Positions 1,500 through 31,634 of a stretch of 33,702 nucleotides of DNA are shown here, piece after piece; position 1 is the first letter of the stretch, and each line of letters opens with the position of its first letter. The notes under the pieces were generated by a model. The model was not told the DNA's origin. It worked only from the letters and a program-made list of their open reading frames with translations, and searched no databases. A program made the translations under genes and the position numbers. The DNA is taken from contig CAZHPF010000001.1 of assembly GCA_964534095.1 (NCBI GenBank), forward strand, positions 1 to 33,702. Direction: 5' to 3'. Source of the DNA: an uncultured Candidatus Saccharibacteria bacterium (GTDB lineage Bacteria; Patescibacteriota; Saccharimonadia; Saccharimonadales; CALMSM01).

Positions 1500-1543
1500 T
1501 CGCCACAAGCGCTGCAAGTGTCGAGACAACCACAGTTGTACAC

Positions 1544-7324: not shown

Positions 7325-7800
7325 GATGGCTTCTCTAGTAAATAAGAGAGGCTATCCGGACACTGTGCCTCGATACGCCGTTCATATTCGCTTTCGGTCG
7401 ATAAGTGAATAATAAGCCGCTCGGCAGGTAATACATGAGCTGCCGCTTCAGCCCATTCCACCACGAGAGTTACCGTTGGGTCACCGATAGTATCGGCTAG
7501 CTCGTGTGCCATAAGTCCAGGATCTGGCAAGCGGTACAAGTCAGCGTGAACGATGTTGCGCAAGGCTCGAGCCGGTTTTTCAGGCACGTTGTATTGCTTA
7601 CTAATGGTGAACGTTGGGCTGCTAACATGGTCAATACTCCCTGTTCCCCTAACTACCCCGCGCGTCAGAGTGGTTTTACCGCTGCCAAGATCACCAACCA
7701 GCTCAATAACTTCTCCGCCTTTTAGCCGGGAACCGACGTCATGCGCCCACCGCTCTGTTTCAGCTTCGCTCCTTACTGTATACGACATTTGCACGTTCAT
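7321..7800 (-). CDS. tsaE: tRNA t6A biosynthesis ATPase TsaE
   Basis: P-loop GDLGSGKTTLTRG, plus the SPTFTI and HADLYRL motifs characteristic of TsaE/YjeE. Confidence 0.85.
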   Translation of the reverse strand: MNVQMSYTVRSEAETERWAHDVGSRLKGGEVIELVGDLGSGKTTLTRGVVRGTGSIDHVSSPTFTISKQYNVPEKPARALRNIVHADLYRLPDPGLMAHELADTIGDPTVTLVVEWAEAAAHVLPAERLIIHLSTESEYERRIEAQCPDSLSYLLEKPS

Positions 7801-7804
7801 AATT

Positions 7805-7833
7805 TTACCAGGTATTGCATAATCCGCTATACT
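7805..7833 (+). promoter_or_regulatory. Putative sigma70-type promoter placed to give a leaderless mRNA
   Basis: TTACCA (7805-7810), a 17-nt spacer, TATACT (7828-7833), then 6 nt to the ATG at 7840. No Shine-Dalgarno element lies in between. Confidence 0.4.
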
Positions 7834-7839
7834 GGTAGC

Positions 7840-8364
7840 ATGCTTAAGCTTAGTGATGCTGTTCTTGAACAGCCCATTTTATCGCTCAGGACGGGTGGGC
7901 AAATTGCCATTGCACACTCGCCTATCATCAACCCCAACAACCTCAAAATTGTTGGGTTTTATTGTCAAGAACGTGGCCGTGGCAAAGAGCCATCGGTACT
8001 GCTCGTCCAGGATATTCGTGAGTGGATACCGCAGGGCTTTGCCGTCAATGATCATGAGGTATTGTCGCTGCCCGCTGATTTGATTCGGCTCCAGCCAATT
8101 ATGGATATCAAATTTGAGCTAACCGGCAAACCCGTCTATACCAAGCATAAAAAACGCTTAGGCAAAGTGAACGACTACGCGGTTGATACCGTTAGTTTTA
8201 CTATCCAGAAGCTATACGTTGGGCAAAATATCCTCAAAAACTTAACTGGCGCAAGCTTGTCGGTTGATCGTGGTCAAATTATCGAAATTACCAATAAGCA
8301 CGTTATTATAAAAGACCCCTTACAGGGCGTACCGCAAGCTGCTCTTTCTGGTGCCAGTGCTTAG
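7840..8364 (+). CDS. Hypothetical protein, tentatively tandem PRC-barrel-like
   Basis: ATG at 7840 (MLKLSDAVLEQPILSL) is preferred, because the track start at 7741 lies inside tsaE on the other strand. The two halves look similar in style (LRTGGQIAIAHSPIINPNNLKIVGF and GKPVYTKHKKRLGKVNDYAVDT). The product call is weak. Confidence 0.55.
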   Translation: MLKLSDAVLEQPILSLRTGGQIAIAHSPIINPNNLKIVGFYCQERGRGKEPSVLLVQDIREWIPQGFAVNDHEVLSLPADLIRLQPIMDIKFELTGKPVYTKHKKRLGKVNDYAVDTVSFTIQKLYVGQNILKNLTGASLSVDRGQIIEITNKHVIIKDPLQGVPQAALSGASA

Positions 8365-8960
8365 CCTTCTTGTAACACAGTCTTAATATCTTCGTAGCTA
8401 AAACCTTGGCGGGCTAAGTATTGCATGAACTTGGTGTCATCGGGGTAGCGGGAACGTTTTTTCGCTACCAGCGCACGCAACAGGTCGCGCTCACTGGTTT
8501 GCTCACGGTCTTCTGCCAGCACTTCGTCAATGATAGTAGGGGCTACGCGTTTCACCAGCAGCTCACTACGGAGTTTGCGCTGGCTGACGGGCTTACCAAG
8601 CCGTCGGTTTTCTGCCCACCGCTGGGCAAATCGTTGGTCGTCAATATAACCAAGTTTTTGGCAGCGTGCGATAATATCTTCCATTTGCTCAGGCGAAGCC
8701 TCTTTGCGCCTTAAGTAGTCGTGTACCTCCCATTCGCTACGTGGACGAATACTTAACAAGTTAAGTATTCTATCAAATAGCTTTCCGGTCGCCGAATCTT
8801 CCCTGTATTCAGCTAGCTGCTCGCTGCTTAGCTCTTGCCCGCTATGCAGCCCGCTCGTTACTAGCTGACTTTCATTGAGCGAAAATACATACTTGCCATC
8901 AATATACACACTATAGCGACTATGCCGTTTGACCTGCTGCTTAATTGCCGTTATCTTCAT
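8361..8960 (-). CDS. recX: RecA regulator RecX
   Basis: N-terminus KITAIKQQVKRHSRYSVYIDGKYVFSL, then repeated three-helix modules (WEVHDYLRRKEASPEQMEDIIARCQKLGYIDDQRFA). Lies downstream of recA. Confidence 0.8.
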   Translation of the reverse strand: MKITAIKQQVKRHSRYSVYIDGKYVFSLNESQLVTSGLHSGQELSSEQLAEYREDSATGKLFDRILNLLSIRPRSEWEVHDYLRRKEASPEQMEDIIARCQKLGYIDDQRFAQRWAENRRLGKPVSQRKLRSELLVKRVAPTIIDEVLAEDREQTSERDLLRALVAKKRSRYPDDTKFMQYLARQGFSYEDIKTVLQEG

Positions 8961-9468
8961 GGCTGTAAAACTGGTTTATAACGTCTTCAAGGCCGTCAGC
9001 GATCTGGTCGGGAGTGTTTTTAATCATTTGCTTTATTTCATCAAGCGTCGCCCATTTGACTTCACTAACTTCTTCTGGCTCAAGCGTGAACACAGTCTCC
9101 CGATCCACTACTGCCTTGTAGACCTTATTGAATCTATTGAATATTCTGTCGCCATACACATAGTTACTCTGGTACATACCGATTTCCTTAAGCTTCGATC
9201 TGATACCAATCTCTTCAAACAGTTCGCGTTCGGCAGCTTGCTCATAATTTTCTGCTGCGTCTACATGACCAGATGCCGAATGATCCCAGCAGTTTGGGAA
9301 ACTAGAAACGGTTGAAGCCCGTTTCTGCAGAAGGATGCGCCCCTCTTTATCCTCAACATGAATCCGCACGATTCGATGGTATAAACCTTTGGCCTGAATT
9401 TCTTCCATAGAAGCCTTGCCGATAGGATTATCCTGTTTATCGACGACCAGTATGGGAGGGTACTTCAC
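8941..9468 (-). CDS. NUDIX hydrolase (IDI/YfcD-like subgroup by N-terminal pattern)
   Basis: Nudix box GHVDAAENYEQAAERELFEEIGI. GTG start at 9468, 3 nt after the recA stop. The conserved-looking N-terminus (ILVVDKQDNPIGKASMEEIQAKGLYHR) supports the GTG start. Confidence 0.85.
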   Translation of the reverse strand: MKYPPILVVDKQDNPIGKASMEEIQAKGLYHRIVRIHVEDKEGRILLQKRASTVSSFPNCWDHSASGHVDAAENYEQAAERELFEEIGIRSKLKEIGMYQSNYVYGDRIFNRFNKVYKAVVDRETVFTLEPEEVSEVKWATLDEIKQMIKNTPDQIADGLEDVINQFYSHEDNGN

Positions 9469-9471
9469 GGA

Positions 9472-10503
9472 CTAATCCTCTTTGGTTGCGGATTCGCGAA
9501 CCTTTTTGGCCAGTTCGCCCAAAACTTTGGGGTTTTCGTCGAGGTATTTTTTGGTGGCTTCACGGCCTTGGCCAATTTTTTCGCCGTTGTAGGCATACCA
9601 GGCGCCGGATTTTTCAACAATATCGCGTTCGGCAGCCATATCAAGTACGTCACCAGCTACGCTAATGCCTTGGTTGTACATAATATCAAATTCGGCTTGG
9701 CGAAAAGGTGGCGCAATTTTGTTTTTGACCACTTTAACACGTGTACGGTTACCAACAATCTCATCACCTTGCTTGATCTGGGCAATGCGCCGAATGTCCA
9801 TGCGGACAGAGGCGTAGAATTTGAGCGCGTTACCGCCGGTAGTAGTTTCGGGGTTACCAAACATCACACCAATCTTCATGCGAATCTGGTTAATAAATAT
9901 AACTGTTGTGTTGGATTTCTTTATCACGCCAGTAAGCTTGCGTAGTGCCTGGCTCATCAATCTTGCTTGCAAACCCGGCAAACTATCACCCATATCGCCT
10001 TCGATTTCAGCCCGCGGTACCAGTGCTGCGACCGAGTCGATAACCACCAGGTCAACAGCATTACTTCGTACTAGCGTTTCGGCGATTTCCAACGCTTGCT
10101 CACCGTTATCCGGCTGGCTTAAAAGCAGATTGTCAATATCTACACCAATGCGTTTTGCGTAGGCCGGATCAAGTGCGTGCTCAGCGTCAATGAACGCTGC
10201 CGTACCGCCTAGTTTTTGGATTTCGGCAATTACATGGAGGGTTAGGGTTGTTTTACCGGAGCTTTCAGGCCCATAAATTTCAACCACTCGCCCTTTGGGA
10301 ACACCGCCGCCAAGCGCCAGGTCTAGGCTCAGCGCACCGGTTGGCGTGGTCTCTACGTCATTATCAGTACGTTCGCCGAGCTTCATGATTGAGCCTTTAC
10401 CAAACTGCTTTTCAATTGACTCAAGCGCCAGGCCTAAGGCTTTTGCTTTGCCTGATGTTTGAGCGTCGTCAGTAGTTACTTTCGCCGCTTTATCTTTCGC
10501 CAT
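9472..10503 (-). CDS. recA: Recombinase RecA
   Basis: Walker [10 protein letters not shown], then [49 protein letters not shown]. Collinear with RecA over its full length. Confidence 0.97.
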
Positions 10504-10537
10504 TTCCCCTCCGGTTTAAGTCTTGTTATGTTACTTG

Positions 10538-10546
10538 ATTATACCA
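10538..10546 (-). promoter_or_regulatory. Extended -10 element (TGgTATAAT) upstream of recA
   Basis: The minus strand reads TGGTATAAT. It lies 34 nt upstream of the recA ATG, and GGAGGGG (rc of 10508-10514) is the SD. No good -35 hexamer at 17 nt. Confidence 0.45.
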
Positions 10547-10592
10547 GATATGGCCGGTTATGGCCTAACAAGAAGGTACTCACAACTCGTAA

Positions 10593-10621
10593 TTGACAAA
10601 TACAAAAAAGCTTTATATAAT
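10593..10621 (+). promoter_or_regulatory. Perfect-consensus sigma70 promoter
   Basis: TTGACA (10593-10598), an exactly 17-nt spacer, TATAAT (10616-10621). SD GGGAG (10636-10640) lies 7 nt before the ATG at 10648. Confidence 0.7.
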
Positions 10622-10647
10622 ACCCTTGATTTAAAGGGAGTTCTGCC

Positions 10648-11601
10648 ATGAACACACGTTTATTGCGCACCGTAGCATACACTCTCTCTGTATGCATCTT
10701 TCTGTTCACTATATCTTTTAACATTATCAATCCTGCCTCGCTCCAAGCCGCGGGTGTTGATTACGCCCTGCATCCTTACACCGAACGAGTTATGGATCGC
10801 ACATACGTCACTTTATTTAATCGTCACGTAGACGTGGGCGCACATGACTACTGGTATCCGCGACTTGTCGAACAAGCTAGCGCCAAATGGTTTGCCCAAG
10901 CGGTCATGAACAGCAACGAGTACCGTAATGGGTTAGGCAAGAAAAATGACACTGACTTTATAAATACCGTCTATACACGCGCTGCTAAGCGTAAGGCAAC
11001 GAATGCTGAGCAAACAATATGGAAGGCTGCTTTTAAGAATAGATCGCAAAGTCGCGCTAGCATGGTGGGTTGGGCTAGCGAAAATCTGTATACCTATAAA
11101 CTCACCCTCCCCAAAGCAACTCAAGGCTGCCAGCAATATAATAAAGGAGGCGCCCTACGTCCATTATGCGATAAGGGTTCTGCGGGTCATCAACGAAATG
11201 TGTCAATTGTCAGGATACCTGACACAAATATATACGTAAATCGTGTGTGGTACTACGAGGTTGATACTTTTATAAAGCTAGCTAAAAGCAAAGGCTACAC
11301 ATTGTCAGCTTCCCGCGAGCCTGACACACCTTCTTGGATGTTTTCGCCAGGTAGTTGGCGAAGCTGGGACGAACAAAATTGGCTCTACAACCACGGTTAT
11401 CCTGCAAACCCTCCAGGCAAATCAATGCATGAATGGGGACTAGCTATTGACTTCAACTGCAACAATAAGCATATTCAAGATTACCGCGCATGCTGGGACT
11501 GGGTGCGTGCCAATGGCGGCAAATACAATGTCCGCAACTTTCATACCGTGAGCCAACCATATCATTCCGAAGCATGGCATTTTTCTCCGAACGGTCTTTA
11601 G
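10648..11601 (+). CDS. Secreted DUF4214-type repeat + M15B/VanY-like (LAS) zinc D,D- or L,D-peptidase
   Basis: Signal peptide (TLSVCIFLFTISFNIINPASLQAA). DUF4214-like segments follow (YVTLFNRHVDVGAHDYWYPRL; FINTVYTRAAKRKATNAEQTIW). The C-terminal half has GSWRSWDEQNWLY, PGKSMHEWGLAIDF (H-x6-D) and SEAWHF (ExxH). Confidence 0.75.
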   Translation: MNTRLLRTVAYTLSVCIFLFTISFNIINPASLQAAGVDYALHPYTERVMDRTYVTLFNRHVDVGAHDYWYPRLVEQASAKWFAQAVMNSNEYRNGLGKKNDTDFINTVYTRAAKRKATNAEQTIWKAAFKNRSQSRASMVGWASENLYTYKLTLPKATQGCQQYNKGGALRPLCDKGSAGHQRNVSIVRIPDTNIYVNRVWYYEVDTFIKLAKSKGYTLSASREPDTPSWMFSPGSWRSWDEQNWLYNHGYPANPPGKSMHEWGLAIDFNCNNKHIQDYRACWDWVRANGGKYNVRNFHTVSQPYHSEAWHFSPNGL

Positions 11602-11678
11602 CTTTTTGACTCGTCACGCTTTCTAAGACCCTTTGCGTAGGAAATAAAAGACACCCATGTTTACAGAGAGTACGGAGA

Positions 11679-11707
11679 TTGCAAAAAAGTAATTTTTATG
11701 CTATTGT
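11679..11707 (+). promoter_or_regulatory. Candidate promoter for the 11726 gene
   Basis: TTGCAA (11679-11684), a 17-nt spacer, TATTGT (11702-11707). SD GGAGA (11716-11720) lies 5 nt before the ATG at 11726. Confidence 0.35.
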
Positions 11708-11725
11708 GTATAATTGGAGATTCCC

Positions 11726-12640
11726 ATGCCTGCACTACCCGGAGAAACCCCTGGCACGTTATCCCGCCGCCGCTTTATCGCCGACGCTGTAATAGTATTA
11801 GGTGGTGGCGCTTTGTTAGGAGTTGGCTCTTTATTACTTGACGATAGAGGCTTGCCTTCTGAACCGTCTTCTCCCTCCGCCCCTTCTCTGCCGGAATCAA
11901 TCAGCATCCCTGATGCAACGCCTTTGTCGACATCCACGACAGTGCCTATAGATCCTTCTCCTACCAGCGAAGTGGAGATACTCCCTGTGCCTGAGTTTCC
12001 AGATTTGACGAAGTTTGAGACAGGCGAATTCCTGGGCACTGCCACCATTCGTTATGTGGATACTCCTGAGCGTCCCGCCACTGAAATAGACGCTTATTAT
12101 GAACGTAAGGGATTAGCCAAGCCTCCTATGAACAATCCTTTTGTACACCAGCTTATTGCCGGTGGCGCAGAAGGTTCAGACGCTATTACCGATGAGATGT
12201 TGGCTCACGGCGTGGTAGCACATAAAATTAACGGGGCGGTTACTATCTTGGCAATGCATAATGTAACGCCGGTCGATGCGCCTGTGGCAATTGACGGTAC
12301 TACGCATAACCAAACGCAAATGGGTATCAATGCCGTGGTTGTACCTGGCGATGTATTAACACTGGTGTTGCCTGATCAAAGTGGCCTGTTGGCTAGTTTT
12401 TCATATAAAGCAGTGCGGAGTTGGATAATCGACACGCACGATGCGACCGCCAGCGAAGCAATCTTGCACGATAGTGAACCTTTTGGTACACAGAAAGTGC
12501 GAACCTATAAATGCTGGGAACCGGGCGATGACCGATACCGACTTGTTGATGAGTGGGTATGGATTAGTGCCGAGGTGTCTACAGCCGAAATTGCCCAAGG
12601 TAATGATGGTGACGTAGGCTCGGTTGGCCCAAATCTCTAG
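11726..12640 (+). CDS. Secreted hypothetical protein with a twin-arginine-type signal and a Pro/Ser-rich linker
   Basis: ATG at 11726 has an SD, whereas the track start at 11714 is TTG. The signal reads TLSRRRFIADAVIVLGGGALLGVG. A P/S/T-rich linker follows (PSEPSSPSAPSLPESISIPDATPLSTSTT). The globular C-terminal domain contains a single Cys (VRTYKCWEP). Confidence 0.7.
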   Translation: MPALPGETPGTLSRRRFIADAVIVLGGGALLGVGSLLLDDRGLPSEPSSPSAPSLPESISIPDATPLSTSTTVPIDPSPTSEVEILPVPEFPDLTKFETGEFLGTATIRYVDTPERPATEIDAYYERKGLAKPPMNNPFVHQLIAGGAEGSDAITDEMLAHGVVAHKINGAVTILAMHNVTPVDAPVAIDGTTHNQTQMGINAVVVPGDVLTLVLPDQSGLLASFSYKAVRSWIIDTHDATASEAILHDSEPFGTQKVRTYKCWEPGDDRYRLVDEWVWISAEVSTAEIAQGNDGDVGSVGPNL

Positions 12641-12658
12641 TGCACGCGAATAATTAAA

Positions 12659-12684
12659 ACACCTCCGCTTTTGCACGGAGGTGT
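12659..12684. terminator. Bidirectional intrinsic terminator between convergent genes
   Basis: Perfect 9-bp stem ACACCTCCG (12659-12667) / CGGAGGTGT (12676-12684) with an 8-nt loop. An A-rich run lies on the left, giving GUUUUAAUUAUU after the hairpin on minus-strand RNA. A T-rich stretch (tgtttgtttt) lies a few nt to the right. Confidence 0.7.
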
Positions 12685-12705
12685 CTACACTGTTTGTTTT
12701 ACGGG

Positions 12706-13311
12706 TTAAGCAGTGTGGCCGAACTGAAACCCGTCGCCATTTTGTGGCACAGGCTGTGGCCGAACCGGTACAGCGGGTGGAGCCACGGGCACTGACGGTG
12801 TAACAGGCTCTACGATATCTACTGGGGGAAGTTGTGGTTCCGTTGGTACATATGGGGCCGTGCTGGTGGTACTGGTGGTTGTAGTAGTCGGTTCCTCTAC
12901 GGTCGTAGGGGGTACTTCGGTGGTTGTTGTAGTAGTTGTAGTTGTACCATCTTCGCAGTCAAGTACTACTTGTTGGCTACCAATTTCACTTCCACCGCCA
13001 TCAAGCTGCGTAACTGTTACCGCTACATCTTCTAGTGCAGGGTCGGTTCCGAGCTCAAAGGTAAATCCTGGTTGGTGTCCTACTCTTGCTTGGTTTGTGG
13101 CGTCTTCCGTGTAACCACTGCCATCTCCGAAAGGCCCGACAGCAACATCGATGTTATAGCCGCCCTCACAATTTACACTAGCTACGGCGTCATTCATGGC
13201 TGCCGCTGCGGGGGCTGTGTCACCCACTACTAACCCACCAGCCGAAGCAGCAACCGTGGCTACGGCTAAAAGCGCCCTTGTTCTCAGTGATGGATCTCTG
13301 TCACTTAACAT
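12706..13311 (-). CDS. Secreted hypothetical protein: small two-Cys beta domain + poly-Thr/Pro-rich tail
   Basis: ATG at 13311 is preferred. The track start at 13329 is GTG and actually lies within the SD (GGAGGGGAG, 7 nt before the ATG). It has a signal-like RTRALLAVATVAASAGG and two Cys (VNCEGG, LDCEDG). The tail reads TTTTTTTTTEVPPTTVEEPTTTTTSTTST followed by PxxP repeats. No LPXTG motif and no TM anchor. Confidence 0.7.
   Translation of the reverse strand: MLSDRDPSLRTRALLAVATVAASAGGLVVGDTAPAAAAMNDAVASVNCEGGYNIDVAVGPFGDGSGYTEDATNQARVGHQPGFTFELGTDPALEDVAVTVTQLDGGGSEIGSQQVVLDCEDGTTTTTTTTTEVPPTTVEEPTTTTTSTTSTAPYVPTEPQLPPVDIVEPVTPSVPVAPPAVPVRPQPVPQNGDGFQFGHTA
12742..12945 (-). repeat. Low-complexity (ACN)n / (CCN)n coding tract (poly-Thr and Pro-rich linker)
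   Basis: Residues 123-190 of the 201-aa protein. The + strand shows runs such as ggttgttgtagtagttgtagttgt. Confidence 0.8.
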
Positions 13312-13433
13312 TATATAACTCCCCTCCACCCGTTAGTTATATTCACACTTCTAAGTATCAACAATTAGTAAAACTTGTCAAGGTGGTTCTAGCTATCGCG
13401 TTTTTGTCATGCTACAATTACAACATAAGCATT

Positions 13434-13973
13434 ATGAAAAAACGTGTCAGTGAATCGTCGAGTAACGTTGTAGTCGGTAAGGCGTCAAGTCGTCATCGTT
13501 TGCACAAGTTTTTAATTGTTTTCGCTGTACTACTGCTTTTTGCGGCAGGAGGATATGCTTACTGGAGACGTAATAATAATCATAAAGATACGACGCAAGC
13601 ATCTTTAACAAACCCGGCTGTGGTATGCAAAGAAGATAGATTAAAAGAAGCCGGTGCTGCTCTTACGAACAATAATCTCGGCGATCTCCAAAAAGCTACA
13701 CAAGAGATACAAAAATTAGAGGGTTATGCGTCAGATCCTAATTGTTTATATATCACTCTGACGGTATTTATACGGCAAAGTGATGCCGTAAATGCCCGAA
13801 CGGAGCTTAACAAATTATTAGCAGTTGATACGGCTGATTTTAGATATAACGAACACCTTGGCTCAGATAAGACACCGCTAGTAAGCCAACAGTCCTTCCA
13901 AGAAACCGTTGAGTTTCTTGAACAATCTCAAAATGAACCAGCCGAAAATGTTCGAAATATAGAGGGAGTGTAG
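13434..13973 (+). CDS. Single-pass membrane protein with a helical (TPR-like?) ectodomain, first gene of the pilus-side block
   Basis: ATG at 13434 (MKKRVSESSS) is preferred, since the track start at 13278 overlaps the divergent gene. TM helix FLIVFAVLLLFAAGGYAYW. TGcTACAAT (13410-13418) lies 15 nt upstream. Confidence 0.65.
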   Translation: MKKRVSESSSNVVVGKASSRHRLHKFLIVFAVLLLFAAGGYAYWRRNNNHKDTTQASLTNPAVVCKEDRLKEAGAALTNNNLGDLQKATQEIQKLEGYASDPNCLYITLTVFIRQSDAVNARTELNKLLAVDTADFRYNEHLGSDKTPLVSQQSFQETVEFLEQSQNEPAENVRNIEGV

Positions 13974-13978
13974 CGGTT

Positions 13979-16171
13979 ATGCGACTGACGGTATCTCACC
14001 CTATACGAGTAGCAACCTTATCTATACTGCTGTGCATTGGCATAATGTCACTACGGACAGGTAGCGCTAGCGCTGGAGCCATTGCCAACGATGTCAGTTC
14101 GGTTGCCCCTACGGCCGTAGCCAATGAAATTGAGAATCGATGCGTTAATTATGGGTGGAACGTAGTCCAACTTTCATGGGTATCGCCTCAAGGTGAACCA
14201 CGAACCACTACTGCTACGGTTAACGCAGGAGCTACCTCTGTAGCTTTACAATTAAATTACGTTAGTTATCGCTGCAAAGCTAATTCGCCGGCAAATTACT
14301 ACACAGTGACAGGACACTCCAAAATTACTGGCACCAGCCCTAGCATCGCAGCCCTCAATGGTAACGTAAGTGACATTCCTTACGTAAGTATTTCTACTAC
14401 AGGGAAACGTTCGGGAGTCGTAAAAACCTTTAATTATTCCCGACCCGGTGGCTTCAATAGCAGCATGAACATTAGCATTACCACCTATTCGCGAGGTGTG
14501 TTGACACAGGCCAATCCGACACGATATAAATGCGCCCTGGTTAATGTCTCTAACCCTAACACTACCGGACCTTATAATTTTGATCCATGCGAACAATCTA
14601 CCTCTGTGTTTACCATACGAGTAAATGTTAATAATAATAAGCCGACAATTGCGTTTGATGCGACCTGCTCGCGAATCGCTTATTACGTTGGAGACGCCGA
14701 CGATGACCTTTACGATGTGCGCATCATTATTGATGGTGAAGATAAACACGTTGAACAAGATCAGGCACCGAATGAACGCTTTGAGTCTAGCTTAACGCAA
14801 TATAAGGATTTTGGAGCTCATCAGATTAGTATTCGCGTGAGAAGTGACGGAGGACATGTTATTACCACAGGCGAGAAAGACATAGTAGGCTCTCCGTGCG
14901 CCACACCATCCTGTGAAGGCGTAACACTCCAGCCAAGTTCAGCGGCGGCCGGGCAATCGTTTGAAGTGAGGGCTACCTTTGATGCGAATATTGGAGCAGA
15001 GGGTAACGGCACACTATATAATGCCGTACTTAATTTGAGCGGGCCAGGAGCGATTACTGTCACTCCTACGAGTGGCGGACCCGGGAACTGGATAATAGAC
15101 GTTCCGCTTAGGTTAGTTGGTGGTGGTATTGGGCCTGGGGGAGGCGGCAACAGCGAGACAGCCATATGGACAGTGCAGTCAAATACAGCAGGCAATTATA
15201 CAGGGAATGTTGTGGTAACCGGTGGATTTAATTTAACCTGCCCAGTCGGTACCGTCGAGGTCGCCAACCATCCTTACCTGCGGGTGTGGCGAGGTGATGT
15301 GGTGGCTGGGTGTACACCGCCAAGTGTGAGTCCTTGGTACCCTACTAATACCGCAGGATCCGGCAAGATACAGGCATGGAACAATGATGCAGTGGGCGCT
15401 GGTGCCGGTACTGATGTGGCGGCGCAGGCCTTGGGAGTAATTGACGGATTTAGCAGTGGCCAGCGAAGTACGATGACAGTAGATGACTACCTAACCTTTG
15501 CCAATACCGGGTCTGGATGGGGTGGTAGTTTCGGAAGCGGACTCTGCGCCTCCGATTACTACAGTGGCGCACCAGCAACGAGTGGCAGTATTTCCTCGGC
15601 TAATCTTTCTAGCTTGGCTTCTGGTACATATTCTTACACTGGAGGGACGATAAGCGGGGCAACTATTGGAGCCGGGAAACACCTTACTATCTACGTAAAT
15701 GGAAACCTCACGATTACCAATGATATCACCTTCGGCAGTACAACAAATTGGTCAAGCGTTACCCAGATACCATCTTTAAAACTTATCGTCAGAGGTGATA
15801 TTAACATAAGTAATCCTGTGAATAACCTTAGCGGCACCTATATTGCTCAGCCTAGTGGCACTACCACGGGCGGTACTATATACACATGCACGAATGGTGC
15901 CACCCCGTACTCGGACACTGTTTCTAGCCGAACCGCTCTCATTAATAACTGCACTGACACCCTAACGGTATATGGATCTTTCGTAGCGCGCACTGTACGG
16001 TTCTTGCGTCTGAGCGGAAATGTCATTACGGCTAATAAGGCTGACGCAGTTGCTCAAGGTACAGCTGCTGAGAAGTTTATTTATAGTCCAGAGATCTGGC
16101 TTTCTGAAAGTGGCTCTAACGGTACCGCTGATGTATATGACTCTATTACTTCTCTGCCGCCAATTTTCTAA
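13979..16171 (+). CDS. Large (730 aa) secreted Cys-containing beta-rich protein, candidate pilus-associated adhesin
   Basis: SD GGGAG lies 10 nt upstream, 5 nt after the preceding stop. Signal peptide VATLSILLCIGIMSLRTGSASAGA. The protein is rich in N, T, S and G, with a Gly run (GGGIGPGGGGN). The C-terminal third has beta-helix-like short repeats (LTIYVNGNLTITNDITF, LKLIVRGDINISNPVNNLSGTYIA, LTVYGSFVARTV). I recognise no family. Confidence 0.75.
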   Translation: MRLTVSHPIRVATLSILLCIGIMSLRTGSASAGAIANDVSSVAPTAVANEIENRCVNYGWNVVQLSWVSPQGEPRTTTATVNAGATSVALQLNYVSYRCKANSPANYYTVTGHSKITGTSPSIAALNGNVSDIPYVSISTTGKRSGVVKTFNYSRPGGFNSSMNISITTYSRGVLTQANPTRYKCALVNVSNPNTTGPYNFDPCEQSTSVFTIRVNVNNNKPTIAFDATCSRIAYYVGDADDDLYDVRIIIDGEDKHVEQDQAPNERFESSLTQYKDFGAHQISIRVRSDGGHVITTGEKDIVGSPCATPSCEGVTLQPSSAAAGQSFEVRATFDANIGAEGNGTLYNAVLNLSGPGAITVTPTSGGPGNWIIDVPLRLVGGGIGPGGGGNSETAIWTVQSNTAGNYTGNVVVTGGFNLTCPVGTVEVANHPYLRVWRGDVVAGCTPPSVSPWYPTNTAGSGKIQAWNNDAVGAGAGTDVAAQALGVIDGFSSGQRSTMTVDDYLTFANTGSGWGGSFGSGLCASDYYSGAPATSGSISSANLSSLASGTYSYTGGTISGATIGAGKHLTIYVNGNLTITNDITFGSTTNWSSVTQIPSLKLIVRGDINISNPVNNLSGTYIAQPSGTTTGGTIYTCTNGATPYSDTVSSRTALINNCTDTLTVYGSFVARTVRFLRLSGNVITANKADAVAQGTAAEKFIYSPEIWLSESGSNGTADVYDSITSLPPIF

Positions 16172-16252
16172 CGTACTGTAATTATTGAGGTAAGGATCCG
16201 ATGAGCGGTAATAACTACCAAAAGGCTTATGTTTATTCTATACTAGGAGCAA

Positions 16253-25592: not shown

Positions 25593-26170
25593 GCCGCACC
25601 TTTCAGGGCTTGTTTTACGCGATCTTCCGTTGACAGTTTGGGGTCTATACTCTGCAACGCCGCCTGCGCATCTATATCTGAGTAACCAAGTGATACGAGT
25701 GCTCGTAGGGCTTCGTCGTTTTGGTTTACTCCGGACCGATTAACCAGACCTTCTGCTGCGTCGCCAACTGGCGCACCAACTTTATCGCGCAGTTCTACTA
25801 CCATTTGTTCGGCCGCCCTTTTGCCAACGCCCTTCGCTGTCTGGAGTAGTTTCACATCGCCTCCTGCGATGGCGCTGCGTACTATTCCTGCCGGTCCAAT
25901 ATCCAGGACGGCCAGAGCAACCTTGGGGCCAACATTTTTGACTGAGAGCAGCTGCTCAAATAAACGTTTACTGTCTGGTGTCCGAAAACCGAACAAATCA
26001 TGCGTGTCTTCTTTGATATGTTCGTAGATATAGAGCTTAATGTCTTGCCCTAGCGTGAGTGCATTCTGGTCGGCAGTCGTTACTAATGCGCCATAGCCTA
26101 CACCTCCACAATCAACAATCACGAGCTGATTTGTTTTTTCAATAATTTCACCGCGTAGAATTGCAATCAT
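25589..26170 (-). CDS. ruvA: Holliday junction DNA-binding protein RuvA
   Basis: MIAILRGEI, an OB domain, two HhH motifs (LLSVKNVGPKVALAVL; LQTAKGVGKRAAEQMV) and C-terminal domain III (ALVSLGYS). Confidence 0.92.
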   Translation of the reverse strand: MIAILRGEIIEKTNQLVIVDCGGVGYGALVTTADQNALTLGQDIKLYIYEHIKEDTHDLFGFRTPDSKRLFEQLLSVKNVGPKVALAVLDIGPAGIVRSAIAGGDVKLLQTAKGVGKRAAEQMVVELRDKVGAPVGDAAEGLVNRSGVNQNDEALRALVSLGYSDIDAQAALQSIDPKLSTEDRVKQALKGAA

Positions 26171-26173
26171 AGG

Positions 26174-27100
26174 CTAAGCTTTTGGGGTTGTGGGCGGATG
26201 ATGAGGGCGTGTATGTTTTTTACTTACTTCTTGGGCAGTAATCATGGCATTACGCATTTGCTCGCCGAGATCAGTCATGCCTGATGGAGAATGTGGGATT
26301 AGGATAGTGTTGGAATTACCTGTCAGGCCGATATCTTTGAGCGTGTCAAAATACTGCGTCATCATGACCAGATTCATCACATCTTGCGCATTGGTGCCCT
26401 CAACAGAGTTACTAAAGTTTTCGACCGATTCACGCAGACCCTCTATGATAGCTTTACGCTGGTCAGCAATGCCCCGCCCTTGCAGCGCCTTACTTTCGGC
26501 TTCACCTTCTGCTGCCTTCACGACACGGATTTTGTCGGCTTCGGCTTGCTCAACTGCCGCAACGCGCAACCGCTGGGCGGCATTGATTTCGTTCATACTT
26601 TGCTTGACCTTAGCGTCAGGGTCAATATCAGTAACAAGCGCTTTGACTATACCGTAGCCGAAATCGTCCATGACCTGGTCAAGTTCTGTTTTGACTGCCG
26701 AAGCAATCTCATCCTTCATTTGGAATAGTTCGTCTAGGTTGATAGTCGGAACCCTGGCACGTACTGTATCAAATACAAACGAAGTAATTTGTTGCTGGGC
26801 GTTTTGCAAACGATAGAACGCATCAACGACTTTTTCCGGCAACACGTAGTACTGCACACTCACCACAACAAACACAAAGACGTTGTCTTTCGTTTTGGTT
26901 TCTACCCGAACGTCAAGCTGCTGCACGCGCAGGCTTAACCTGCCAGCAATCCTATCGATAAGCGGGATTTTGAAATTCAAGCCAGCTGACGAAACTTTTC
27001 TAAACTTTCCAAAGCGTTCAACGAGTGCCGCTGTTTGCTGTTTTACCGTAAACAGTCCTGTCAGCAAAATAATGACAGCAATGACGACCAAAATCCACAT
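26174..27100 (-). CDS. SPFH/band-7 (stomatin/flotillin-like) membrane protein
   Basis: N-terminal TM helix, then VKQQTAALVERFGKF and a band-7 core. The coiled-coil region is Ala/Glu-rich (AAQRLRVAAVEQAEADKIRVVKAAEGEAE). No NfeD partner gene is adjacent. Confidence 0.85.
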   Translation of the reverse strand: MWILVVIAVIILLTGLFTVKQQTAALVERFGKFRKVSSAGLNFKIPLIDRIAGRLSLRVQQLDVRVETKTKDNVFVFVVVSVQYYVLPEKVVDAFYRLQNAQQQITSFVFDTVRARVPTINLDELFQMKDEIASAVKTELDQVMDDFGYGIVKALVTDIDPDAKVKQSMNEINAAQRLRVAAVEQAEADKIRVVKAAEGEAESKALQGRGIADQRKAIIEGLRESVENFSNSVEGTNAQDVMNLVMMTQYFDTLKDIGLTGNSNTILIPHSPSGMTDLGEQMRNAMITAQEVSKKHTRPHHPPTTPKA

Positions 27101-27145
27101 AAACCCTCCGTTCTTTGTACTACCAGTATACCGACAGTACGGCTA

Positions 27146-27604
27146 TCAGGCAATTGTTAGTGCGGCGGCAAGCGCATCGGCACAGTCGTCTGGTTTTGGT
27201 ATATCCTTTAGGCCGAGATGTACACGCACCATTTCTTGCATCTGCGCTTTCGTAGCCCTTCCATAGCCTGTAATGGCCTGTTTTATCTGGAGCGGTGTTT
27301 TTTCAACTAGTCGTAGGTTGTGTTTCCTGCCAAGCAGTAACATCACGCCACGCGCATGACTTACGCTTATTGCTGTGGTGACATTTTGTGCGAAAAATAG
27401 CTGCTCCACCACCATAGCTTCTGGCTTGTGCTCCACGATAATCTGCTCTAGCTCATTATAAATAGTAAGTAACCGCTCCGAAAGCTCCTGGTTTACCGGT
27501 GTACGTATCACACCGGCATCAACAAGCGTTGGCTTGCCTTTTATGACATCAATAACCCCAAATCCTACGATACCTGTCCCCGGATCAATCCCTATTATTC
27601 TCAT
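27146..27604 (-). CDS. ruvC: Holliday junction resolvase RuvC
   Basis: MRIIGIDPGTGIVGFGVI, VVEQLFFAQN, ITGYGRATKAQ, DDCADALAAAL. These cover the catalytic D/E/D/D positions. Confidence 0.9.
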   Translation of the reverse strand: MRIIGIDPGTGIVGFGVIDVIKGKPTLVDAGVIRTPVNQELSERLLTIYNELEQIIVEHKPEAMVVEQLFFAQNVTTAISVSHARGVMLLLGRKHNLRLVEKTPLQIKQAITGYGRATKAQMQEMVRVHLGLKDIPKPDDCADALAAALTIA

Positions 27605-27655
27605 ACACCTAAAGCATAGCGCGTTCGCTACCCCTCGCCAACAGCACGAATGATA

Positions 27656-29305
27656 TTAACGCTTATGGCGAAGACGCATATATAGATTCAGCATGTCGTA
27701 ACGATACTCGTATAACGCGTAGCCGATAATTACACTAAGCACTGCTCCGATTATAAGAACATTAGATTTGTGGGATGATTGGTCTTCGTCCTGAGGCTGC
27801 GACGAAGCAGCAGCCGATAACACCTTTCTACAGCGGTTTGTTTCAGGATTACGCTCCTGCCCCTGCTGGCATTGTTTTAGAGTAGAAGCATCTGTTGCAT
27901 CGCTGCGACAGCGGTTAGTGGCCGGGTTACGTACCTGTCCTGGTTTGCAAGGTGTCAGTGCTGAAGACGCAGTAGTAACAAGGTTGCGGCAACGATTGGT
28001 TTCGGGGTTTCGGTACTTGCCTAGGCCGCATGAGCTTAATGAAGTCTTTACCTCAATAGTACGGCAGCGGTTAGTGGCCGGGTTACGATACTTTCCGGCC
28101 GGACAAGGATCGAGTGTTGCCCCCTTGACAAGCGCAGCCAACACCATGCTTGACTCAAGGTTAGGCTGATTGGGCGTTGGTCTATCGGTAAACTGCCATG
28201 TACCATCTATGAGCGCCCAAGCAATATTGTCTTTAGGATTGCTATACAGGTCAGAGTTGCTTACCACGTCACCCGTTGGAGCCACGAGCAGCAAACTTGC
28301 CGACGAGTTTGGAAGTGAAAAACCTACGTCTGTATCCGAAAAGGTCTGATACTGTCCGGCTGCAATCGTCCCGCTTATAAACGTGTAGGTTGCCGATGCG
28401 CTCGGTTCTAACTTAAGCTGATAGCCTGTCAATGCAACGCTATGATTATTGGGATTGTACAGCTCGATGAACTCGTTGCCTGTATCATAGCTGCTAGTGT
28501 TTGGTAGCAGTTCGCTAATAACCAATGTAACGCTTTCCAGAAGAGCAGTTGTACATTCACCAGTGCTGCTGTGTTGGTAGCCGTCAGGAACATCTTTCTG
28601 CAGTCCGTCCAAATTACTGCACATATCCTGCTGACAGCTTCCGTCCGTATCATACAGATATCCGTCCGGCAGTTCAGCTTGCACACCCAGTATATTGGGG
28701 CAGACGTCCACCGGAACTGTTTGTACGTATAAACCAGGGTTGGGCGAAATGACGAGTTCGGTCAGTACAAAATCAGCCGCGTCGTCACCGGTATCCTGTA
28801 GCGTGGAGACATCGATTGGCAGGCGCTGGTATATTTGTCCAGCAGGTGCTTTACTGACCCAAGTAAATTGGTCGCGCACCACACCATTTGCGTCTACTAG
28901 TGATAAAAATCCACCTCCGTCCGCCATGCCTCCGGAAAACCCAGTATTGGCTTGTGGGATAAACGGGATATCTGCGTGAGCCGCAATAAACTCATGCGAG
29001 GCAAACGTGGTATAGCTATAGCTCGCCAGCCATAGACGATCTGCAGGATTAGTCGGCACTATACAGCCGGGCTTTGATAGCGAGTCTTTGTAAAACAAAC
29101 ACCAGCCGGTAACATCAATGTCTGTATTGGTGTTGTTGTAAATCGATACGTATTCTTGGCTGGCTGCGTCTTCGGCACCGGTTTGTACCTGAGCAATAAC
29201 CACCTCGTTGCCCATCGTTGCGAACCCAGTCGCTGTGCCAGAACCACACAGTATGGCGAGGGTTGCAACAAACAGAGGTAACAGAAGTACCCGAATGATT
29301 TTCAT
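27656..29305 (-). CDS. Membrane-anchored surface protein: 2x lamin-tail domain (LTD), 2x CPN-type Cys module, 4x CxxGxxRNPxTNRCR repeat, C-terminal TM anchor
   Basis: Signal peptide at the N-terminus. LTD hallmarks are EYVSIYNNTNTDIDVTGWCL and NEFIELYNPNNHSVALTGYQL. The two Cys modules are VCPNILGVQAELPDGY...GSC and MCSNLDGLQKDVPDGY...GEC. Four basic Cys repeats occupy residues 401-493. TM helix VLIIGAVLSVIIGYALY is followed by a basic tail. Confidence 0.85.
   Translation of the reverse strand: MKIIRVLLLPLFVATLAILCGSGTATGFATMGNEVVIAQVQTGAEDAASQEYVSIYNNTNTDIDVTGWCLFYKDSLSKPGCIVPTNPADRLWLASYSYTTFASHEFIAAHADIPFIPQANTGFSGGMADGGGFLSLVDANGVVRDQFTWVSKAPAGQIYQRLPIDVSTLQDTGDDAADFVLTELVISPNPGLYVQTVPVDVCPNILGVQAELPDGYLYDTDGSCQQDMCSNLDGLQKDVPDGYQHSSTGECTTALLESVTLVISELLPNTSSYDTGNEFIELYNPNNHSVALTGYQLKLEPSASATYTFISGTIAAGQYQTFSDTDVGFSLPNSSASLLLVAPTGDVVSNSDLYSNPKDNIAWALIDGTWQFTDRPTPNQPNLESSMVLAALVKGATLDPCPAGKYRNPATNRCRTIEVKTSLSSCGLGKYRNPETNRCRNLVTTASSALTPCKPGQVRNPATNRCRSDATDASTLKQCQQGQERNPETNRCRKVLSAAASSQPQDEDQSSHKSNVLIIGAVLSVIIGYALYEYRYDMLNLYMRLRHKR
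27827..28105 (-). repeat. Four tandem, roughly 26-codon coding repeats (C-x2-G-x2-R-N-P-x-T-N-R-C-R)
   Basis: CPAGKYRNPATNRCR, CGLGKYRNPETNRCR, CKPGQVRNPATNRCR, CQQGQERNPETNRCR. An exact 23-nt match (cagcggttagtggccgggttacg on +) occurs at 27909-27931 and 28065-28087, linking repeats 3 and 1. Confidence 0.9.
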
Positions 29306-29311
29306 GCACCC

Positions 29312-29339
29312 ATCATAGTGCCCTCTGAATGTGTGTCAA
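29312..29339 (-). promoter_or_regulatory. Near-consensus promoter placed to give a leaderless mRNA for the LTD gene
   Basis: The minus strand reads TTGACA (29339-29334), a 16-nt spacer, TATGAT (29317-29312), then 6 nt (gggtgc) to the ATG at 29305. No SD. Confidence 0.55.
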
Positions 29340-29348
29340 GCATTTTCT

Positions 29349-29398
29349 AATCTCAGCTTTAAATCAGAGTTAAAGCTGAGTTAACTCTGAGATTTTTT
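29349..29398. promoter_or_regulatory. Interlocked, mutually exclusive hairpins: likely yebC terminator and/or operator upstream of the LTD promoter
   Basis: Hairpin A is 29352-29362 (ctcagctttaa) with 29370-29380 (ttaaagctgag), 11 bp. Hairpin C is 29365-29373 (cagagttaa) with 29381-29389 (ttaactctg), 9 bp, followed by agatttttt on +. An outer pairing joins 29349-29356 (aatctcag) with 29387-29394 (ctgagatt). A and C share nucleotides, so they cannot form together. Confidence 0.5.
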
Positions 29399-29420
29399 AC
29401 TGCGAACTGAGCAATCAAAC

Positions 29421-30146
29421 TTAACTCAATAGTCCGTCGGCAATATCAAAATTTACGTGTGTAGCCGTAACGTCGTCACACTCTTCGAGGGCGTCCATGA
29501 GCCGCATGATCTTTCCGGCTGTCGCCGCATCATTCACCTCAACAGTGTTGGTTGGTACATAAGTTAGTTCGGCATCGGTAACTTGCAGACCAGCGGCCAC
29601 CAAGGAGTCGCGTACGCTGGCAAGTTCTTTGGAGTTAGTGTACACAATCAGTTCATTGTCTTCCTCTACGACGTCTTCGGCACCGGCTTCCAGCACTTGC
29701 AGCATAGCGTCGTCACCGCTGGCGTTAAGCCGGATCATGCCTTTATGGTCAAACTGGAAAGCTACCGCTCCCTTTTCAGCAATGTTGCCCCCATGTTTAC
29801 TGAACGCCAGGCGAACTTCTGGATAGGTTCGATTGGTGTTGTCGGTTGCCACTTCAACCAGGATAGCCACACCGCCTGGGCCGTAGCCCTCGTAGAGTAT
29901 CTCTTGGAGCTGGGCAGCTGACTTATCGCTGACCCGGTCAATAGCGCGTTGGATATTGGCCATGGGCATATTGGCGGCTTTGGCTTTATCGATGGCCAAG
30001 CGCAGCCCGAAATTAGTCTCAGGGTCAGCTCCGCCGCGGGCGGCAACGGCAATCATGTTACCAAGCTTGGTAAAAACAGCTCCACGAGCAGCGTCTTTGA
30101 CGCCTTTCTGTCGTTTAATGGTTGACCATTTGCTATGACCCGACAT
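29421..30146 (-). CDS. yebC: YebC/PmpR-family DNA-binding regulator / translation-associated factor
   Basis: MSGHSKWSTIKRQKGVKDAARGAVFTKL, EILYEGYGPGGVAILVE. Collinear with the family over its full length. Confidence 0.93.
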   Translation of the reverse strand: MSGHSKWSTIKRQKGVKDAARGAVFTKLGNMIAVAARGGADPETNFGLRLAIDKAKAANMPMANIQRAIDRVSDKSAAQLQEILYEGYGPGGVAILVEVATDNTNRTYPEVRLAFSKHGGNIAEKGAVAFQFDHKGMIRLNASGDDAMLQVLEAGAEDVVEEDNELIVYTNSKELASVRDSLVAAGLQVTDAELTYVPTNTVEVNDAATAGKIMRLMDALEECDDVTATHVNFDIADGLLS

Positions 30147-30167
30147 GTATTCTCCTTTGATCGTCTG

Positions 30168-31634
30168 CTACTTCTTATCTGTTATTGTATCATTTTTGGT
30201 AATTGTTCGCCACAATATGAACGTTGCTAGGTCTATGCCTAGATATAAGATAATCATTACTTCTAGGGAGACGGGTTGCTCGATTAAGGCATGCGGCCAG
30301 CCTGCTAGAGTATGCGCGAGGTCAAGCATATAGGTAAGTATAAGGCGTGCTGGTGTTCCCACCCAGCCGCTGAGCGCTGGTGACACTGCGCCAGCAATAC
30401 CGGCCAGGAGGGTTGTGAGCATACCCAGCGGCACAAGCGGCACTACCAGCACATTGCTCAACAACCCTATAACCGATAGCCGGTGAAAGATATACATAAT
30501 GATTGGCAATGTCATCAGCTGCGCACAAAAACTTTCGATAACGAGTAGCGTTACTATGTTGGGCTGCCTGCCTATCTGCTCTAACCGCTTGACAATAAAC
30601 GGTGCTATCACCAGCACGCCGAAAAAAGCCAGAAACGACAGGTACCAGCCAATATCACTCCATAGATAGAGTGGATACCACCCCGCAGTGAGGGCAGCGG
30701 CGCACAGAATCAGCAGCACTGGACGAACTTTACGACCGTAGTACCATGCCCACAGGCCTATGATACTCACAATTGCAGCTCGTACGATAGAAGCTCCGAA
30801 TCCTGTAACAAGCAAAAAACTGCTAATCAAGGCCAGTGACCATATTGTCGCCTGGTACTTGGATCGCTTGCCTAGTTTGCGGCGGGTTATTTCTATGATG
30901 ACGGTAAGGTTGTAGCCAGACACAGCGATAATATGCGTCAGCCCGACCGTCGATAAATCGTCGCTAACTTGGTCGGGAAGCGAAGTTTTTTGACCAATCA
31001 GTATTCCAATACCAAACGAGGCCTGAGGTTCAGGCAAGGCATTGCGGATACCGGCACTAAATTTTAGGCGTAGTTTATCAAAGGCTGTCAGATGTCTGGT
31101 GGTTAGTGCAATAGAAGCGAAGCTTACGCCAGCCTGGCTTGAACCTCTTGTTTTGTAGAGCTTACCGGTTATGCGCAGTACGTCACCGCGAAACACGGCC
31201 GATGCTCCTCTGCCCTTTACGGTCAATTTGCCAGGCAACCGCTGCGGCGTAGGCGTAAGGACTTCTAAGGAATCGGCATCAAAGCTGATTTGTGCATTGT
31301 CGTATACTCCGTCGCTCTGAGCAATAACCTGTAGTGTGACTATTTGACCATACAGTCTGTCATACGCACTCAGTTTGTGCATGTAGACATTACCACGCCA
31401 ACATCCCACACATAGTCCCAGAACACACAACACCACACCTAGTACTTTTCGTCGTGTCCGCATCGTCGCGCACATAGCTAATACTAAAGCTACACATACA
31501 TATACCCAACTATCCCAGGCCGGTACTATGCGTGCGAGACCCAAGCCAACTAAGACACTTGCGAAAAACAGCGTCAGTAAGGTAGTGCGTTTGGTAGGGG
31601 GAGGATAAAAATAACGAGTCATTGCCGCAAGCAC
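30168..31634 (-). CDS. comEC: DNA internalisation channel ComEC/Rec2, short form (OB/DUF4131 + competence domain, no metallo-beta-lactamase domain)
   Basis: GTG at 31634 has GGAG 8 nt upstream; an alternative ATG is at 31622. N-terminal TM helices are followed by an OB-like segment (VTLQVIAQSDG...LTVKGRGASAVFRGDVLRITGKLY). A polytopic competence domain follows (GLTHIIAVSGYNLTVI, IVRAAIVSIIGLW). The protein ends at 488 aa. Confidence 0.85.
   Translation of the reverse strand: MLAAMTRYFYPPPTKRTTLLTLFFASVLVGLGLARIVPAWDSWVYVCVALVLAMCATMRTRRKVLGVVLCVLGLCVGCWRGNVYMHKLSAYDRLYGQIVTLQVIAQSDGVYDNAQISFDADSLEVLTPTPQRLPGKLTVKGRGASAVFRGDVLRITGKLYKTRGSSQAGVSFASIALTTRHLTAFDKLRLKFSAGIRNALPEPQASFGIGILIGQKTSLPDQVSDDLSTVGLTHIIAVSGYNLTVIIEITRRKLGKRSKYQATIWSLALISSFLLVTGFGASIVRAAIVSIIGLWAWYYGRKVRPVLLILCAAALTAGWYPLYLWSDIGWYLSFLAFFGVLVIAPFIVKRLEQIGRQPNIVTLLVIESFCAQLMTLPIIMYIFHRLSVIGLLSNVLVVPLVPLGMLTTLLAGIAGAVSPALSGWVGTPARLILTYMLDLAHTLAGWPHALIEQPVSLEVMIILYLGIDLATFILWRTITKNDTITDKK

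Follow-up and report, generated by a model that had tools for sequence, protein, structure and literature searches.

The window analysed here, 33,702 nucleotides long, is the entire largest contig of an 826-kb, 89-contig, 94%-complete metagenome-assembled genome (MAG) of an uncultured Saccharimonadales bacterium (Saccharibacteria/TM7). Between positions 8361 and 31634 it brings together recombination genes (recA, recX, ruvA, ruvB and ruvC), type IV pilus assembly genes (pilB, pilC, pilM, pilN and pilO), yebC, a gene for a surface protein with lamin-tail domains (LTD) and the DNA-uptake gene comEC. We mapped the region from a six-frame listing of open reading frames (ORFs) and Pfam scans, and all the genes named in an original prediction made from the sequence were found, pilN and pilO by position and topology (Table 1). 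That prediction described the genes as contiguous, with only a handful of others between them. The gene set was as described, but 12 of the 25 ORFs, covering ≈10.5 of the 23.3 kb, lie outside DNA uptake and recombination (NUDIX, a VanY-like peptidase, four unknowns including a 730-aa secreted protein, a 99-aa ORF, bPH_2, two SDRs, GNAT and SPFH). Neither Rfam matches nor tRNA genes were found in the window.

The locus falls into three strand blocks, which would form three separate units: recA-(nudix)-recX; a pilus assembly operon of the second type known from Saccharibacteria (T4P-2), pilB-pilC-pilM-pilN-pilO-99aa, divergent from recA; and, convergent with the latter, comEC-yebC followed by LTD-ruvC-(SPFH)-ruvA-(GNAT-SDR-SDR)-ruvB-bPH, bPH being a bacterial PH-domain membrane protein. 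In the third block yebC, ruvC, ruvA and ruvB are co-directional and in canonical order, as they are in 20 relatives and in other classes of the phylum, and in this they match the yebC-ruvC-ruvA-ruvB operon of many bacteria (PMC3403352, for the yebC-ruvC association). The array of the window differs from the usual operon in being headed by comEC, in ending with the PH-domain gene and in being interrupted by five unrelated genes (LTD, SPFH, GNAT and two SDRs). Only 21 bp separate comEC from yebC, and the two are probably a bicistronic unit. Across the loci compared, ruvB is almost always followed by a PF03703 PH-domain membrane protein, and the pair also occurs in other classes (L059, L060, L062-L065 and L070).

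Table 1. Features of the locus and of the loci compared with it. Positions are those of the window unless another locus is named.
Feature	Locus	Positions	Strand	Basis or remark
tsaB	window	6935-7324	-	Pfam TsaD
tsaE	window	7321-7800	-	Pfam TsaE
PRC-barrel-like gene	window	7741-8364 (ORF as listed)	+	weak Pfam PRC match, E=0.017; true start probably near 7840
recX	window	8361-8960	-	Pfam, three RecX HTH domains
NUDIX	window	8941-9468	-	Pfam NUDIX 3e-20
recA	window	9472-10503	-	Pfam RecA 9.7e-143
VanY/DUF4214 peptidase	window	10648-11601	+	Pfam DUF4214 and VanY
308-aa protein	window	11714-12640	+	no Pfam match
207-aa protein	window	12706-13329	-	no Pfam match
231-aa protein	window	13278-13973	+	no Pfam match
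730-aa secreted protein, Asn/Thr/Gly-rich	window	13979-16171	+	no Pfam match
pilB	window	16253-18064	+	Pfam T2SSE 2e-129
pilC	window	18068-19282	+	Pfam T2SSF 9e-61
pilM	window	19367-20431	+	Pfam PilM_2 4e-39
pilN-like	window	20428-21033	+	position and topology only; no Pfam PilN match
pilO-like	window	21030-21671	+	position and topology only; Pfam PilO E=0.054
99-aa ORF	window	21668-21967	+	after pilO-like gene
bPH	window	21969-22580	-	Pfam bPH_2 3.5e-6
ruvB	window	22590-23627	-	Pfam RuvB_N 2e-79
SDR, SDR, GNAT	window	23627-25592	-	Pfam adh_short twice, Acetyltransf_3
ruvA	window	25589-26170	-	Pfam RuvA_N, HHH_5, RuvA_C
SPFH/Band-7	window	26174-27100	-	Pfam Band_7
ruvC	window	27146-27604	-	Pfam RuvC 1.7e-44
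LTD protein: membrane-anchored surface protein, two lamin-tail domains, Cys/Arg-rich repeats	window	27656-29305	-	Pfam LTD 1.5e-22, two stretches
promoter-like TTGACA-16-TATGAT	window	29339-29312	-	ends 6 nt before LTD ATG
hairpin after yebC	window	29364-29390	-	between yebC and LTD
yebC	window	29421-30146	-	Pfam TACO1/YebC
comEC, 488 aa	window	30168-31634	-	Pfam Competence PF03772 9e-42, DUF4131 PF13567 5e-8
promoter-like TTCACA-17-TATACT	window	31703-31675	-	74-bp spacer upstream of comEC
putative split nuclease ORF	L058	5634-6521		motifs
putative split nuclease ORF	L059	2943-3800		motifs
putative split nuclease ORF	L061	6232-7110		motifs
putative split nuclease ORF	L062	6325-7173		motifs
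putative split nuclease ORF	L063	6312-7175		motifs
putative split nuclease ORF	L069	8767-9648		motifs

Conservation of this order beyond close relatives, a check proposed with the original prediction, was assessed in one genome per family for 40 families of the order, locating RuvB, RecA, ComEC and PilB-type ATPases in each. The neighbourhood recurred in representatives of most families. recA and pilB were divergent and less than 3 kb apart in 31/40 families, recA lay within 16 kb of ruvB in 34/40, and pilB stood between them in 29/40. A comEC gene was located in 34 families, 22 of which had it co-directional with ruvB at a distance of up to 10 kb. The four anchor genes were all collinear in 18/40; many of the families failing a count are undecidable, with the genes on separate contigs.

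We fetched the loci of 20 relatives and mapped every protein of the window onto them. Seventeen showed gene-by-gene collinearity: the PRC-barrel gene converging on recX and recA; then, divergently, pilB, pilC, pilins, pilM, pilN, pilO and the 99-aa gene; and, facing these, bPH, ruvB, ruvA, ruvC, LTD in some, yebC and comEC. The arrangement extends to the left as tsaB-tsaE-(LTD)-PRC-barrel-recX in 15/15 relatives, with a PRC-barrel homologue adjoining recX in at least 14. Distances were also held. The comEC-yebC spacing has a median of 23 bp across families and is ≤60 bp in 16/19 family representatives, while in the 20 relatives the median is −2 bp (an overlap) for ruvA-ruvB and 6 bp for ruvB-bPH; recA and pilB diverge from adjoining promoters, the spacer measuring 98-228 bp in 15/18 relatives. 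Outside the block, order was lost. No left-flank gene of the window (MoxR/VWA operon, sortase) was found in the 16-18 kb beyond tsaB in 15 relatives, with one distant exception, nor any of its three right-flank genes within 10 kb in 18 comEC-anchored loci. The stretch from tsaB to comEC has thus survived rearrangements on either side. Within it, insertions vary among relatives at the yebC/ruvC and ruvC/ruvA junctions and in the pilC-pilM gap, the pil operon is absent or displaced in four loci (G004, G007, G017 and G033), and comEC is located elsewhere in at least three (G004, G022 and G030).

Outside the order we sampled 115 genomes of the phylum from 65 other families, with a chance expectation of ≈2% per gene pair for lying within 10 kb. 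At this distance, ruvB-recA was linked in 1/100 genomes and recA-comEC in 3/108. yebC-comEC, in turn, was linked in 20/99 genomes and 12/62 families (16 genomes within 5 kb, and almost all co-directional), nearly as frequently as the classical yebC-ruvB pair (27/90 genomes). Altogether, comEC was within 10 kb of yebC, ruvB or recA in 26/109 genomes and 15/62 families. Examples fetched from this sample read comEC-(split nuclease ORF)-yebC-ruvC-ruvA-ruvB-bPH, with variants in which comEC follows ruvA or stands beside recA. As a whole, the supercluster is thus a trait of Saccharimonadales, and comEC-yebC persists more widely. Whether it had one ancient origin or arose by repeated re-association, the link of comEC to yebC/ruv is much older and more persistent than its link to the pilus. 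In the literature searched, we found no description of this phylum-level recurrence of comEC beside yebC-ruvCAB-bPH, and a search for comEC linked to yebC or ruvC gave nothing on Patescibacteria.

The ComEC of the window has both the Competence channel domain and the N-terminal OB/DUF4131 domain, and Pfam detects no Lactamase_B (metallo-beta-lactamase) domain in its 488 aa. Other classes of Patescibacteria have, behind comEC, a separate ORF of 282-295 aa with an N-terminal transmembrane helix and metallo-beta-lactamase motifs (DVGQGD, HPHADH and HHGS), which by these motifs would be the split-off nuclease domain of ComEC. No homologue of it was found in the genome studied or in the fetched Saccharimonadales loci. 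A short ComEC of the same two-domain make-up supports transformation in the cultured relative Southlakia epibionticum (PMC10633639). We found no ComEA-type HHH_3 match above the cut-off in the MAG, where absence from an incomplete assembly is not proof, and none is annotated in S. epibionticum.

The LTD gene occupies one of two alternative sites of the block in 14/15 relatives, and never both. The window, G007, G008, G010, G018 and G019 have it between yebC and ruvC, and G002, G004, G009, G013, G014, G015, G024, G027 and G029 between tsaE and the PRC-barrel gene that adjoins recX; G038 has it at neither. A literature search for a link of LTD proteins with ComEC gave one unrelated paper. A second protein with two LTD domains (a 786-aa frame) is encoded on another contig of the genome (C23, 8361-10583).

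The pil operon is compact, with start and stop codons overlapping or a few bp apart, and the same operon was found in 17-18 family representatives, with the pilN/pilO pair conserved after pilM. It holds PilB, PilC, PilM, PilN and PilO, neither pilT nor any pilin, and lies with pilB 5.7 kb from recA. Other contigs of the genome carry the missing parts: C38 has a pilM-like gene, a pilB paralogue (42% identity), a pilC paralogue and the only pilT-like gene of the genome, a locus of the first pilus type (T4P-1), and pilin-type N-termini occur on C10 and C44. Since the operon has no pilT, is linked to recAX and has its pilins elsewhere, its architecture matches the locus for T4P-2, the pilus with which TM7x and Southlakia attach to their hosts, and of this locus it would be the counterpart. 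In TM7x, locus two encodes PilC2, PilB2, PilM2, PilN2, PilO2, RecAX and a single pilin, and builds thin T4P-2 pili (PMC11623550). As in the window, this locus of Nanosynbacter lyticus TM7x has no retraction ATPase, and the main pilins are encoded elsewhere, with a separate pilT-containing locus one (bioRxiv 2024.11.25.624915). Unlike that locus, the one in the window has no pilin at all; pilus function (thin pili, host binding, dispensability for competence) is known for TM7x only, and the TM7x paper is silent on the continuation into ruv-yebC-comEC. The original prediction had the pili of this locus capturing DNA. The genetics of TM7x speak against this, as deletion of pilB2 or of the T4P-2 pilins left competence at the wild-type level and impaired host binding (PMC11623550). 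A DNA-uptake role for the pilus of the window is not supported, and on present evidence the position of its operon is inherited rather than functional.

A second cultured relative offers phenotypes for the entire locus. S. epibionticum ML1 (Wang et al. 2023, Cell; Table S1, PMC10633639) has it at SEML1_0758-0777, in 19.5 kb, in the order pilB, pilC, pilM, pilN, two small hypotheticals, PRC-barrel (SEML1_0764), recX, a hypothetical, recA, a GspH-type pilin, the PH-domain gene, ruvB, a hypothetical, ruvA, a transglycosylase, ruvC, LTD, yebC and comEC. Compared through the published annotation table and synteny, rather than by sequence alignment, the two loci agree in gene set and very nearly in gene sizes, including a pilO-like gene, a gene of ≈90 aa and a 482-aa comEC with DUF4131 and Competence domains only, and neither has pilins between pilC and pilM. 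They differ in that the pil operon of S. epibionticum lies beyond recX and not between recA and the PH-domain gene, a site at which the GspH-type pilin was left; in having a transglycosylase, not SPFH, between ruvA and ruvC; and in the absence of SDR/SDR/GNAT, NUDIX and the 5.7-kb insertion beside recA.

The original prediction also asked for a phenotype shared by the blocks, but in transposon sequencing (Tn-seq) of S. epibionticum the blocks differ: insertions class comEC, yebC and recX as non-essential and recA as mildly defective, those in pil genes cause a growth defect, and ruvB scores as essential, as do ruvA, ruvC and the LTD gene (SEML1_0775, a positional orthologue) during outgrowth (PMC10633639). 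Deletion of comEC abolished transformation and not growth, and the authors concluded that nucleotides are acquired without need of the com system (PMC10633639). On these Tn-seq data, the suggestion that the cluster serves nucleotide scavenging was rejected. The genes dprA, comF, radA, recG, recJ, recR, recF and ssb lie dispersed over the S. epibionticum chromosome.

Signals for transcription were read from promoter and hairpin scans, which report consensus matches only and found no more sites in the region than in shuffled sequence. A promoter-like site precedes comEC, and a hairpin and a further promoter-like site separate yebC from LTD (Table 1), the latter pointing to a probable internal transcription start and a near-leaderless mRNA. 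In 15/15 relatives, pilB has a TATAAT or TATACT box 13-24 nt before its ATG, while a -10 box for recA stands on the opposite strand. Strong -10 boxes placed 6-18 nt ahead of the start codons of LTD and pilB (29312-29339 and 16172-16252 in the window) suggest that the mRNAs of both are leaderless or near-leaderless. We looked for an operator shared by recA and pilB in 15 spacers, using k-mers and by eye, and found none: the -10 boxes are separate and there is no common palindrome.

How far could such a cluster arise by chance? In simulations on an 850-kb circular genome, four pre-specified units fell inside 23.3 kb with P ≈10−4, and any 4 of ≈15 DNA-related units did so with P ≈0.07. Clustering in this genome alone is thus only weakly above chance; the original prediction had itself cautioned that chance co-location is not negligible in a small genome. 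We count the neighbourhood as real because its order is conserved across genomes, and not on single-genome statistics.

On balance, we lean towards a neighbourhood of three separately transcribed units conserved across the order, in which the comEC-yebC-ruv core has been kept for co-expression and the position of the pilus operon has been inherited. The third block would be the old core, a widespread yebC-ruvCAB operon headed by comEC, in a combination also found in other Patescibacteria classes, and recAX would have joined it in Saccharimonadales. ComEC would import single-stranded DNA, and RecA, RuvAB and RuvC would recombine it into the chromosome (natural transformation) or use it for recombinational repair. 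Such a pathway fits the comEC-dependent transformation demonstrated in this group. We infer both the co-transcription and the action of Ruv proteins on imported DNA. Of the linked uptake-recombination module of the original prediction, this retains a comEC-yebC-ruv(-recA) association that recurs outside the order and for which alone functional coupling is plausible, and drops the pilus, whose T4P-2 mutants in TM7x stay competent. Expression of uptake and recombination genes together as one pathway is also known from competence regulons, as in pneumococcus, where ComX induces recA and radA (PMC11708029); there, a regulator acts on dispersed genes, in place of the physical clustering seen here.

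Several observations weigh against this interpretation. The promoter-like site and hairpin between yebC and LTD suggest two transcripts or more for the array, one of comEC-yebC and one running from LTD to bPH, and the yebC/ruvC and ruvC/ruvA junctions are hot-spots for insertion. Of the 34 families with comEC, 12 have it on a different contig or over 10 kb off, and in a further 6 families it was not found. Genomes of one phylum are not independent, and the 20/99 linkage of yebC with comEC may reflect retention from one ancestor. The conserved block also holds the unrelated tsaB, tsaE, PRC-barrel and bPH genes, so conserved order is no proof of common function. In well-studied transformable bacteria, branch migration in the course of transformation is carried out by RadA or ComM, not RuvAB. 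Neither DprA (PF02481, DNA_processg_A) nor comEA was found in the 94%-complete assembly; for DprA this may be an assembly gap, as the cultured relative has dprA. In S. epibionticum, dprA and comF, partners specific to transformation, are far from the locus, and ruvB is essential while comEC is dispensable (PMC10633639), meaning that Ruv has duties independent of ComEC.

Many of the same facts would follow if comEC, ruv, recA and the pilus were not coupled at all and had simply remained neighbours since one ancestor, rearrangement being slow in small, repeat-poor genomes. We consider this possible though less probable. The unrelated genes of the block are expected under it, as are the lineage-specific genes inserted at almost every junction, the loss or movement of the pil operon without loss of the rest in G004, G007, G017 and G033, the fitness phenotypes that vary from gene to gene in S. 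epibionticum and the chance of ≈0.07 for any 4 of 15 DNA-related units in 23 kb. But slow rearrangement sits poorly with a block kept while both flanks were scrambled between families, and with a comEC-yebC spacing held at ≈23 bp in 16/19 families. Nor would inertia alone be expected to yield the association of comEC with yebC, ruv or recA in other classes, in differing arrangements (26/109 genomes, 15/62 families).

At the other extreme stands the fully integrated module of the original prediction, in which the pilus captures DNA, the LTD protein replaces ComEA as receptor, ComEC imports, and RecA and RuvABC integrate the DNA or it becomes a nucleotide source. The placement of the pil operon between recA and ruvB in 29/40 families speaks for it, as does the LTD gene being kept in the block, at one position or the other, in 14/15 relatives. 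So do the failure to find a ComEA-type HHH_3 protein and the detection of ComEA in only 31% of genomes of the candidate phyla radiation, for which Meheust et al. suggested alternative DNA binding (PMC6744442). The TM7x authors noted that a pilin beside recA 'hints at DNA uptake', and a role of T4P-2 could be hidden if the essential T4P-1 is redundant with it. Yet T4P-2 mutants of TM7x, pilB2 included, keep wild-type competence and T4P-2 promotes host binding (PMC11623550); comEC, comF and dprA are non-essential in S. epibionticum, in which uptake is not needed for nucleotides in co-culture (PMC10633639); the LTD gene is essential there and comEC is not, so that the LTD protein must have a task other than feeding ComEC; comEC is kept in families without this pil operon (G004, G007 and G017); and a shared operator was not found in the recA-pilB spacers. 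We find this version improbable. Loss of comEC together with the pil operon was also considered as a sign of coupling and set aside, the numbers being too few (a degenerate pilB in 2 of 6 families in which comEC was not found, and the pil operon missing in 3 of 34 with comEC). A bolder proposal, which we regard as speculative and rather unlikely, is that comEC-(split nuclease)-yebC-ruvC-ruvA-ruvB-bPH is an ancient patescibacterial operon coupling import to Holliday-junction processing: RuvABC, and not RadA/ComM, would act on transformation intermediates, or imported DNA would serve recombinational repair, and in Saccharimonadales, which lost the ComEC nuclease domain and are without ComEA, the LTD protein would be the DNA receptor or processor.

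The locus itself is already known, being annotated in the published genomes of cultured relatives, with its pil-recAX part described. New here are the family-by-family counts across the order, the edges of the block, the tight, conserved comEC-yebC spacing and the recurrence, across the phylum, of comEC beside yebC-ruvCAB-bPH. Among Patescibacteria, only Saccharibacteria are genetically tractable, and this tractability rests on comEC-dependent natural transformation. The likely partners of comEC worth perturbing are yebC and ruv, possibly recA and LTD, and not the adjacent pilus. That comEC recurs with yebC-ruvCAB in the phylum at large offers a hint, open to testing, on how imported DNA is processed in these reduced genomes.

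Finally, the window has features of its own lineage. A 5.7-kb insertion (10648-16171) splits the otherwise back-to-back recA and pilB promoters, and none of its five genes has a homologue in the loci of the 20 relatives. We considered whether they were a displaced pilC-pilM pilin cassette and rejected this, as they have neither similarity to it nor pilin N-termini. The pilC-pilM gap is 85 bp in the window, without pilins, whereas in relatives it holds one to four genes, with a major pilin and often three minor pilins; the major pilin matching that of the relatives is on another contig of the genome (C10, near 14868, minus strand) and starts MSLKSKQQGFTIVELLIVIVVIG. SDR-SDR-GNAT between ruvA and ruvB occurs in the window only, the junction lacking it in the 20 relatives, SPFH between ruvC and ruvA only in the window and G029, and NUDIX between recA and recX only in the window and G011. 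Within the insertion, the VanY/DUF4214 peptidase gene is preceded by a perfect TTGACA-17-TATAAT promoter, and a protein with a Tat signal is also encoded. The left flank (813-6062) is a co-directional operon of a MoxR AAA ATPase, DUF58, two VWA proteins and a TPR protein.

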